64,000 nt of DNA. Origin: Nitrosopumilus sp. (GTDB lineage: Archaea > Thermoproteota > Nitrososphaeria > Nitrososphaerales > Nitrosopumilaceae). Of this stretch, positions 9,245 through 13,020 are shown piece by piece. Position 1 is the stretch's first letter; the number at the start of each line of letters is the position of its first letter. The notes beneath the pieces are model-generated. The model had not been told where the DNA came from, ran no database searches, and saw only the letters and a program-made list of their open reading frames with translations. The stretch spans positions 928,001 through 992,000 of the forward strand of contig OZ241857.1 of assembly GCA_965203315.1 (NCBI GenBank), in the 5' to 3' direction. A program made the translations under genes and the position numbers.

Positions 9245-9599
9245 GGCGATTGCTCATTTCGAGCCCCTAAGCATGTATTGCACCAATAAATCAAACAGAT
9301 CGCAATTTCGGTTATTGTATCGCCACTCCATCTCTTTGAGATACAGTGGGAATTTCTTTGAACTCACACCTCGATACTTTGCCAAGTTCAATTTAGCAAA
9401 GCCCCAGAACCCTTCCATTCCATTGATGTGCGCATCACCTCGCAAAGATGTTCTGATGATCAACTGATTCTCTCTGGTATCCATGAAAGACCGATTTACC
9501 ATACCCGTCATTTCCCATCTCGAGAAGAGATATCAAATACATCAAGACTTGTGTCTAAATTTGGTCATATTTAGTTAGGGGCTCGAAATGAGCAACACC
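9245..9599 (-). mobile_element. Internally deleted IS1595-family element
   Basis: Perfect 21-bp inverted repeat TTGCTCATTTCGAGCCCCTAA (9250-9270 / 9575-9595); ORF 9254-9511 is a transposase C-terminus (HINGMEGFWG.AK...YRGVS.K.F.LYLKE.EWRYN). Confidence 0.85.
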
Positions 9600-11258: not shown

Positions 11259-11798
11259 CAAATTATTTCCATTTGGATAATTTTAGCTGTTTTATTGATC
11301 AATGTCATTAATCAACGCAAATATGTTACTTGAGTTGTTTTTGGAGAAACTATTCCAAGTTAGCTTCAAATATTTATTAAATTGCAAGCATTCCTATAAT
11401 GTGTAGTGTCTTACTAAAACAGACATTTAGATAAACTGAACTAGGAATCACACAATACTTTTGCACGAATAAGATACCTACAAACCAATAGCCGAGTATA
11501 ACGATTGTTTGGTGAGATGTGACGTAAACTAGTCGTGAGTCAATAATGTAGAGAATGGGTGATTCGATAGACACGTTCATGGCCAGTCATCGATAGTTAT
11601 GGATAACATGCATCTAAAAGGGGTAATGAGACATTATCCTAGGCGTTTATCTAAAAAGATGCAAAAGGTCGTTATATTGAATAGACGAAACATCATGCCG
11701 TATGAAGAGTGAACACTTTTGGTATCTACTTTTGGTATCTACGCCATCGATGTGATAGACAAATAATTATATTTCAAAGACTCGGTAGTTACTTTGGT

Positions 11799-11903
11799 AG
11801 CCCGATAGTCTAGCGGTCAAGTATATTATTAGATCAGTGATTCTGCCCTCTGGATCTCAAGAGTGGATAGGCAGAGACGGCAGTTCGAATCTGCCTCGGG
11901 CTA
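11799..11903 (+). tRNA. tRNA-Gln(CTG) with two introns (11821-11837 and 11855-11869)
   Basis: Acceptor stem AGCCCGA/TCGGGCT, anticodon stem CTGCC/GGCAG with CTG at 11850-11852, T-arm GGCAG-TTCGAAT-CTGCC; both inserts fold as bulge-helix-bulge. Confidence 0.9.
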
Positions 11904-11990
11904 CTGAAACTATCTAGACTCAAAACAGTATGCAAAATAGGTCGTAGTACACTGTTCGAATCTGCCTCGGGCTACTGAAACTATCTAGAC
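11883..11990. repeat. 37-bp perfect direct repeat around a 34-bp unique insert
   Basis: GTTCGAATCTGCCTCGGGCTACTGAAACTATCTAGAC at 11883-11919 and 11954-11990. Confidence 0.95.
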
Positions 11991-12580
11991 GCTTGTGCAA
12001 TACGTTCTAGTTCATTCTTTCTCTTTACAGAAGGAGCATTTGGATCATTTGTACTTGCAAGAATGAGTTGTTCTGCCATGTGCTCCTCGATCGGTTTTGG
12101 ATTAACAAATGTTGCCTCTTTTATTGCATCTGCAATAAACTTGAGAGCAAGGTCTACACGTCGTATTGGTGCGACATCGACAGATACATGGTATACGGTA
12201 CCACCATAGACTATTCTAGTTGTATCTTCGTTTGGTGCAGAATACTCGACAGCTCGAACCAAGACCTCAACAGGATTCTTGCCGGTCTTTATCGATATGA
12301 TATCAAACGCGGTCTTGACAGTATTGAGAGCCTTGGTCTTTTTGCCAGACATGCGACCTGTATTCTTTGCATACTTTTTTCCAAAATGCATGATCTTATT
12401 CACGAGTCGCTCAACGATATTAACTTCAGCTTTGTTGAAACGCTTGAGAGCAGAACGGCCGTACGTATAAGGAAGAATCTGTTGTTTGAGAGATATTGCA
12501 GTCTTGAGACCTGGATCGTGTACATCAATCTTTGACGTATCCCATTTCCTAAACAGTAAAAGATTCTTTGTCTGAGCCAA
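11981..12580 (-). CDS. rps7: 30S ribosomal protein S7
   Basis: LFRKWD, NIVERLVN, VSVDVAPIRRVDLAL, ELERIAQASR. Confidence 0.97.
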   Translation of the reverse strand: MAQTKNLLLFRKWDTSKIDVHDPGLKTAISLKQQILPYTYGRSALKRFNKAEVNIVERLVNKIMHFGKKYAKNTGRMSGKKTKALNTVKTAFDIISIKTGKNPVEVLVRAVEYSAPNEDTTRIVYGGTVYHVSVDVAPIRRVDLALKFIADAIKEATFVNPKPIEEHMAEQLILASTNDPNAPSVKRKNELERIAQASR

Positions 12581-12582
12581 CT

Positions 12583-13020
12583 TTATCTCCTAGGCTTCTC
12601 CTTTTTACCAATCACCAACTCGTGTAGTGATGTACCATTTACTTTGAAGACCTTGAAACGGACGCCAGGTATATCACCCATGGCACCACCTTGTGTTGCC
12701 CCCATTCCTTGAATGTGAACTTCATCGTGTTCATCAATAAAGTTCATTGCACCGTCTCGTGGCAAGAATGCAGTTACAGTCTTGCCGTTCTTTATCAACT
12801 GAACACGAACACACTTGCGCACAGCAGAGTTTGGCTGCTTGGCAGCTATTCCAACCTTTTCTAAGACTATACCACGACCTTGTGGTGCGCCACCTAAAGG
12901 ATCTGCCTTTTTATCTATACCCAGTTCACGACGTTTGTATGTAGATATTGCCCAGCGTCGTCGTTTCTTCTTTGTCGTTAAGACTCTACCTGCAAATAGA
13001 CCTAGAGGAGACTTGCGCAT
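12583..13020 (-). CDS. rps12: 30S ribosomal protein S12
   Basis: [30 protein letters not shown]. Confidence 0.98.

Follow-up and report, generated by a model that had tools for sequence, protein, structure and literature searches.

A 37-nt target duplication around a self-derived insert at a tRNA-Gln/rps7 junction: very probable off-target spacer integration in an ammonia-oxidising archaeon

The small unit that separates a tRNA-Gln gene from rps7 in the genome studied here very probably originated when the resident type I-B Cas1-Cas2 integrated a spacer off target (ectopically), and is the scar of that event. An earlier sequence-only reading of this DNA had proposed such an origin, which is now supported by a resident repeat of the same length (37 nt), a donor in the cell's own genome, the recurrence of the unit and the existence of empty sites. 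Geometry, donor, recurrence, empty alleles and an intact adaptation module were observed, and the agency of Cas1-Cas2 and the orientation of the event are what we infer. The unit at tRNA-Gln is real and polymorphic, and on the basis of its sequence features it is one of at least five such putative events in this genome.

The window, that is, the whole stretch of 64,000 nt that was analysed, corresponds to C1:928001-992000 of a genome of 2.47 Mb assembled in 7 contigs. This genome encodes an archaeal AmoA and the organism is therefore an ammonia-oxidising archaeon. A repeat search of the window located the word GTTCGAATCTGCCTCGGGCTACTGAAACTATCTAGAC exactly twice, with 100% identity; the starts of the two copies are 71 nt apart and a 34-nt insert lies between them (Table 1). 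The bases bordering the copies are different (A/T before, T/G after), so the duplication measures exactly 37 nt. Copy 1 covers the tRNA from the last base of the 5' strand of the T-stem over the T loop and the 3' acceptor strand to the discriminator; behind the gene follow a 6-nt gap and 10 spare nt with the sequence of the rps7 end. In copy 2 it is the tRNA 3' fragment that is spare, and the gap leads into the genuine last 10 nt of rps7 including its stop codon. The perfect duplication, the extension of the duplicated word from the 3' part of the tRNA over the gap to the last 10 nt of rps7, and the integrity of both genes had all been described from the sequence-only reading and stand as described: the tRNA ends within copy 1 and the rps7 frame is complete, with its stop in copy 2.

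Table 1. Features of the tRNA-Gln/rps7 junction (positions in the window) and the five counted units with their donors (positions on contigs).
Feature	Position	Strand	Duplication / insert (nt)	Donor (identity)	Donor flanks	Evidence
tRNA-Gln(CTG), with anticodon-loop intron and extra D-loop insertion; last 21 nt in copy 1	11799-11903	+				Orthologues of relatives; ARAGORN with introns; alignment with 18 relatives
Pseudo-repeat copy 1, 37 nt	11883-11919	n/a				Repeat search; 100% identical to copy 2
34-nt insert (putative ectopic spacer), copy of a thiolase gene piece	11920-11953	n/a		C1:1158254-1158287 (32/34)		Self-genome search
Pseudo-repeat copy 2, 37 nt	11954-11990	n/a				Repeat search and ORF
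rps7, ribosomal protein S7, 199 aa, intact; stop codon 11981-11983 in copy 2	11981-12580	-				ORF and translation
Unit C (tRNA-Gln/rps7)	C1:939883		37 / 34	Thiolase gene (32/34)	AAG/CCG	
Unit A	C1:807540		37 with one mismatch / 35	C1:1293199-1293233 (34/35); weaker copies of the same IS family	GGA/GAT	
Unit D	C1:1929632-1929740 (L057 2632-2740)		37 / 35	C1:1258821-1258855 (32/35)	CAA/AAA	
Unit E	C1:1392035-1392144 (L058 2035-2144)		37 / 36	C1:424594-424629 (36/36)	GCA/ACA	
Unit G	C5:232655		37 with four mismatches / 38	Contig C7 (32/38)	CAA or GCA	

The tRNA gene was missed by ARAGORN in its default mode and by Rfam. When introns were allowed, ARAGORN placed a tRNA at C1:939799-939904, mistyped as Ser, and its orthologues in loci L003 and L005 were called tRNA-Gln(ctg) with one intron. 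The extra insertion in the D loop (around 16 nt) is common to six relatives (L004, L006, L009, L014, L020 and L021). The ORF on the right side is taken to encode S7 from the reading of its translation and from the neighbouring S12-like ORF at 12583-13020. A 13-nt tandem duplication (ACTTTTGGTATCT, twice) was found at 11715-11742, around 60 nt upstream of tRNA-Gln. To the left of the tRNA, a stretch of lower G+C content carries an ORF of 85 aa (9254-9511, minus strand), which presumably resembles the C-terminal part of an IS1595/ISXO2-type transposase.

The insert had been considered unique, which does not hold: a search of the own genome matched it alone, with the flanks on both sides unrelated, to a segment present elsewhere on C1 with only two differences, and the homology ends exactly at both ends of the insert. 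The segment is located inside a gene of 384 aa with Pfam Thiolase_N and Thiolase_C_1 domains, beside a small OB-fold-like ORF. Both differences would change the protein if present in the thiolase (W120C and S129F). For comparison with relatives, 16 of 29 loci were used, the other 13 having been misplaced by the ungapped matcher (opposite orientation) and dropped. Of the 34 insert positions, only 25-28 agree with the thiolase DNA of the relatives, in whose 16 placed loci the W and S codons do not vary; the donor, as judged from these comparisons, is hence the lineage's own thiolase gene, and the two changes would most simply have arisen in the copy. The exact 34-mer was not found in viral_contigs, and a version with N at the two variable positions had no match in genome_contigs, a collection from which the own genome may be left out. 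These collections accordingly provide neither a foreign source nor a second genome carrying the unit, and the search of genome and viral contigs suggested earlier ended in the cell's own thiolase gene.

A resident CRISPR-Cas system with cas1 and cas2 was identified, as the proposed origin presupposes. A single Cas1 homologue is present in the genome (223-230 bits, cut-off 71.7), together with Cas2 (56.6 bits against a cut-off of 24.5) and Cas4 (85.4 against 65), and cas1, cas2 and cas4 are all open frames. They form an operon with cas7 (Csh2-like), cas5 (Cas5b) and cas3 (HD and helicase), whose predicted gene content is of type I-B layout. The only CRISPR array of the genome follows this operon at C1:1011295-1016339, around 70 kb from the tRNA-Gln unit, and comprises 70 repeats of 37 nt each (GTCTGAATGAAACTTCTACTAAAACAAAGATTGAAAC) and 69 spacers of 34 nt (14 spacers), 35 nt (25), 36 nt (15), 37 nt (8), 38 nt (5) and 39 nt (2). 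Only the last repeat is degenerate, which places the leader on the cas4 side. No further copy of the array repeat with up to 7 mismatches was detected genome-wide, and other k-mer-periodic loci were rejected as arrays, being tandem or coding repeats. With 37 + 34 nt, the tRNA-Gln unit exactly equals one repeat plus one spacer of the native array in size.

To search for other units of the same kind, the genome was scanned for isolated perfect direct repeats of at least 28 nt with a period of 40-130, and a second scan tolerated mismatches. The isolated repeats detected outside the array clustered at a repeat length of 37 nt and a gap of 34-38 nt, in agreement with the peak of gap lengths that had been anticipated. 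Besides the unit at tRNA-Gln (unit C), at least four units (A, D, E and G) were counted, with a 37-nt duplication and an insert of 35-38 nt. Donors of units A, D and E are chromosomal and that of unit G lies on contig C7, which is targeted by the CRISPR array. In all five counted units the donor homology stops at the ends of the insert, and in four of them the donor identity is at least 91%. As a control, 21 of 6000 random 35-mers were found to have a second copy with homology bounded on both sides; a first control, in which 277 of 1500 random 35-mers had a second copy, was dropped as uninformative, since the genome is rich in IS and partly redundant.

This redundancy concerns the first ~18 kb of C5 and ~64% of C4, which repeat C1 sequence. 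Around 9% of the 31-mers of C1 are multi-copy, with many IS copies, and a pentanucleotide microsatellite, (CTGTC)n, extends for ~170 nt or longer from C1:1677323.

The duplication stays at 37 nt across the five units and the totals differ (71, 72, 72, 73 and 75 nt), which indicates a ruler acting on the repeat and not a constant total. Hairpin folding of the inserts was not detected (fold z-scores from -1.19 to +0.77). Three further loci (C5:337295, C1:386876 and C1:965792) were rejected as units because the gap resembles the neighbouring sequence, as in diverged tandem or coding repeats. Two candidates were left uncounted as doubtful: unit B (C1:187161; 36/33), which is without donor and in frame within an ORF, and unit F (C1:750909; ~37/38), in which the donor homology covers 33 nt only (31/33).

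The units occupy different surroundings. Unit E is located between the 3' end of a tRNA-Gly(CCC) and a convergent gene for a TPR protein, with the stop codon within copy 2, a layout identical to that of unit C between the convergent tRNA-Gln and rps7; unit F is also placed between two convergent gene ends, and unit A among clustered IS copies. Unit D lengthens a protein that is conserved across the genus by 24 aa (...SDIQASNKVQR-DNETSQPPTSFDM-SDIQASNKVQR...), through 72 nt inserted in frame within a variable linker, and is absent from the 5 homologues aligned. The 3' ends of tRNA genes host two of the five counted units, although as targets the 48 tRNA genes represent well under 0.1% of the genome.

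The likeness of the targets to the repeat was ranked against all 4.9 million 37-mers of the genome. On its minus strand, the target of unit C (GTCTAGAT...AGATTCGAAC) agrees with the repeat (GTCTGAAT...AGATTGAAAC) at 17 of 37 positions overall and at 12 of 16 terminal positions, within the top 0.0096% for the terminal score; the plus strand gave 18/37 and 11/16, the likeness being slightly better on the minus strand. The earlier proposal of a one-spacer array read through from the tRNA promoter is not supported in that form. Unit G, on its minus strand, agrees at 18 of 37 positions and at 11 of 16 terminal ones (top 0.05%, terminal), and unit A, also on the minus strand, at 18 of 37 (top 0.46%). 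No ungapped likeness to the repeat was found for units D and E on either strand, a point against the proposed origin. A G at the start and a C at the end, as in the repeat, are found in units C, E and G. The element AGATTCGAAC, antisense to the tRNA T loop, resembles the 3' end of the repeat, AGATTGAAAC. To judge from these matches, the tRNA-Gln/rps7 site was probably chosen since its ends mimic those of the repeat.

The native PAM could be deduced from contig C7 (53,622 bp; loci L064-L066), which has nearly no 31-mers in common with the chromosome. Five native spacers match it, four perfectly and one with 4 mismatches, each beside TTA or TTG, and C7 is for this reason probably a virus or plasmid that coexists with a host already targeting it. 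An ORF of 1897 aa is encoded on C7; a PHROG search of 8 of its ORFs gave no match for seven and one weak thymidylate-synthase-like match. The native PAM is thus 5'-TTA or TTG (TTR) at all five protospacers. None of the five ectopic donors has TTR beside it in either orientation (Table 1). The search for a PAM at the donor of unit C, recommended in the sequence-only reading, therefore gave AAG and CCG in place of the native motif.

The missing PAM is the main departure from canonical acquisition. PAM selection is a part of canonical adaptation, which in systems bearing Cas4 is ascribed to this protein, and the integration step itself has no PAM requirement. The lack of TTR at any donor would mean that the fragments bypassed the usual PAM selection; alternatively, self-spacers bearing the PAM were selected against.

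Donors without native PAM would also fit a different origin, in which a non-CRISPR process would add ~72 nt by joining a short copy of self DNA to a long target duplication, the CRISPR dimensions being reached by chance. Such a process, with which totals divisible by 3 in 5 of 7 candidate units also agree, is improbable against a duplication that is fixed at 37 nt in five units while totals vary from 71 to 75, equals the resident repeat in length and encloses inserts of the commonest native spacer lengths, and against targets of which three in five resemble the repeat.

Ectopic integration by Cas1-Cas2 predicts a single copy of the target where the event did not occur. The target is single-copy in all 18 same-genus loci in which the tRNA 3' end is present, with rps7 directly behind in 17, and no integrase-bearing element was found at the site in these 18 loci, so that the empty allele expected in relatives is present throughout. 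Unit E is also empty in at least four relatives, in which the matches to the tRNA and to the TPR gene overlap by 34-36 nt and thus leave one copy at the site.

These loci bear as well on the alternative offered in the sequence-only reading, namely an attL/attR scar left by a tyrosine-integrase element in the 3' end of tRNA-Gln and later deleted to 34 bp. A duplication over the 3' part of a tRNA is the classical att geometry and a second unit, E, lies at tRNA-Gly, but the scar is very improbable: it fails because the 34 nt are a coding fragment of the host's own thiolase gene and not the end of an element. In addition, the loci of the 18 relatives are without an element, the same 37-nt duplication appears at sites other than tRNA genes, including the inside of an ORF, and two different tRNAs would each require an element with a 37-bp core.

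The unit was also sought in independent samples. Logan contigs of X1 (study P1), X3 (P2) and X4 (P3) contain pieces of 94-101 nt that run from copy 1 through the insert to copy 2, with zero differences and at the depth of the flanks; the contigs of three studies consequently bridge both copies, as proposed for verification. A 37-nt repeat does exceed many assembly word sizes and the assembly is partly redundant, with the start of C5 repeating that of C1, but an assembly artefact or a chance repeat is hardly credible, since these bridging contigs span the unit and a perfect 37-mer recurring 71 nt away is not expected by chance in 2.5 Mb.

On the other hand, X5, which shares its organism label and its study with X1 and comes from a different sample, yielded a contig of 4085 nt that joins position 11882 to 11954. 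It skips exactly 71 nt and is otherwise identical over the stretch, with ~630 flanking bases. The unit, which had been regarded as fixed, is thus lacking in a sister sample and is unstable or young. The single copy in the relatives indicates that the empty state is ancestral. Units A, C and D together show six differences between insert and donor, five of them from GC to AT, a bias that suggests drift after insertion; if drift followed insertion, X5 would have lost the unit secondarily, through recombination of one 37-nt copy with the other. The indications of age are in conflict: two of the 34 insert positions deviate from the donor, the 37-nt copies are identical, and the sister sample, identical in the ~630 flanking bases, is empty.

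The mechanism by which ectopic integration would have produced the unit is drawn from the established biochemistry of Cas1-Cas2. The integrase would have taken up 34 nt derived from the thiolase gene of the same cell and would have attacked the tRNA-Gln/rps7 junction on both strands at points 37 bp from each other, in the same way as it acts on the ends of a genuine 37-nt repeat, and repair of the gaps would then have duplicated the 37-bp target. As a consequence of this duplication, the convergent tRNA-Gln and rps7 keep complete 3' ends, so that the event was presumably neutral and could persist, and insertions at tightly packed convergent ends in general would be harmless.

A wider reading of the five units together is advanced tentatively, as possible and somewhat doubtful. 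According to it, Cas1-Cas2 would keep pasting self DNA into repeat-like sites in a PAM-blind side reaction, probably independent of Cas4, in which the antisense of the tRNA T loop serves as a decoy for the 3' end of the repeat. The reaction would be active on the time scale of laboratory culture, given that of two sister samples one carries the unit and the other lacks it, and would alter proteins, as in unit D. The adaptation machinery might then act both as an insertional mutator belonging to the cell itself and as a source from which new arrays arise, and, if this were true, both the cost and the rate of the reaction could be measured in a wild-type organism.

Off-target integration has been documented mainly in Escherichia coli over-producing Cas1-Cas2, and its frequency in the wild, the DNA used and its cost are questions. 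The genome studied here offers a natural record, with an integrase and its ruler, at least five putative scars, a native PAM for contrast, and relatives and a sister sample with the empty allele. This record suggests that ectopic integration takes fragments that skipped PAM selection, that tRNA T loops can mimic the end of a repeat, and that duplication of the target protects genes when insertions fall between convergent ends and may add in-frame peptide segments to proteins. A simple test for other genomes follows from it: isolated direct repeats of the exact repeat length, separated by a gap of spacer length with a bounded donor.

Among known systems, the attL/attR sites of tyrosine integrases in archaeal tRNA genes share with unit C a direct repeat over the 3' part of the tRNA and differ in that unit C has neither an element nor an integrase, its insert derives from host coding DNA and the same duplication length occurs at non-tRNA sites. 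Casposons carry a Cas1-like casposase inside, are bounded by terminal inverted repeats and generate a target duplication of ~14-15 bp; a casposon was rejected, as the sole Cas1 homologue is in the cas operon, the insert has 34 nt and the duplication 37 nt.

The closest parallel is the off-target integration described in E. coli, which, according to later papers that cite it, can spawn new arrays, with circumstantial evidence from two other species (Nivala, Shipman and Church 2018, Nat Microbiol 3:310). In that work, as cited, the type I-E Cas1-Cas2 was over-produced and events were detected by deep sequencing; IHF-like motifs are reported to raise the frequency of off-target integration. The units described here resemble those neo-CRISPR loci in the repeat-length duplication, the spacer-length insert outside the array, the repeat-like target and the intact adaptation module. 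Compared with that work as cited, they differ in being natural, in belonging to an ammonia-oxidising archaeon with a type I-B system and in numbering at least five per genome; moreover, their donors are identifiable, mostly self and without PAM, and unit C is filled or empty between sister samples.

Grainy et al. 2019 (PMC6698737) reported that in vitro the off-target sites of Pyrococcus furiosus Cas1-Cas2 share specific sequence features with repeats, and that the G1 and the last C of the repeat matter. Agreement with those sites is seen in the G...C ends of units C, E and G and in the repeat-like targets of units A, C and G; the P. furiosus reactions, as given there, took place on plasmids, whereas the products described here are fixed or segregating on a chromosome. 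Off-target acquisition is, moreover, one of three proposed origins of isolated arrays (Shmakov et al. 2020, CRISPR J 3:535, as cited in PMC13142298). In contrast to such isolated arrays, the present units have one spacer and pseudo-repeats that agree with the real repeat at only 17-18 of 37 positions. Each of the RNA runs on record contains at most 0.04 of the words of the stretch. Off-target integration is already known, and the tRNA-Gln unit is an unusually clean natural case of it and not a new system.
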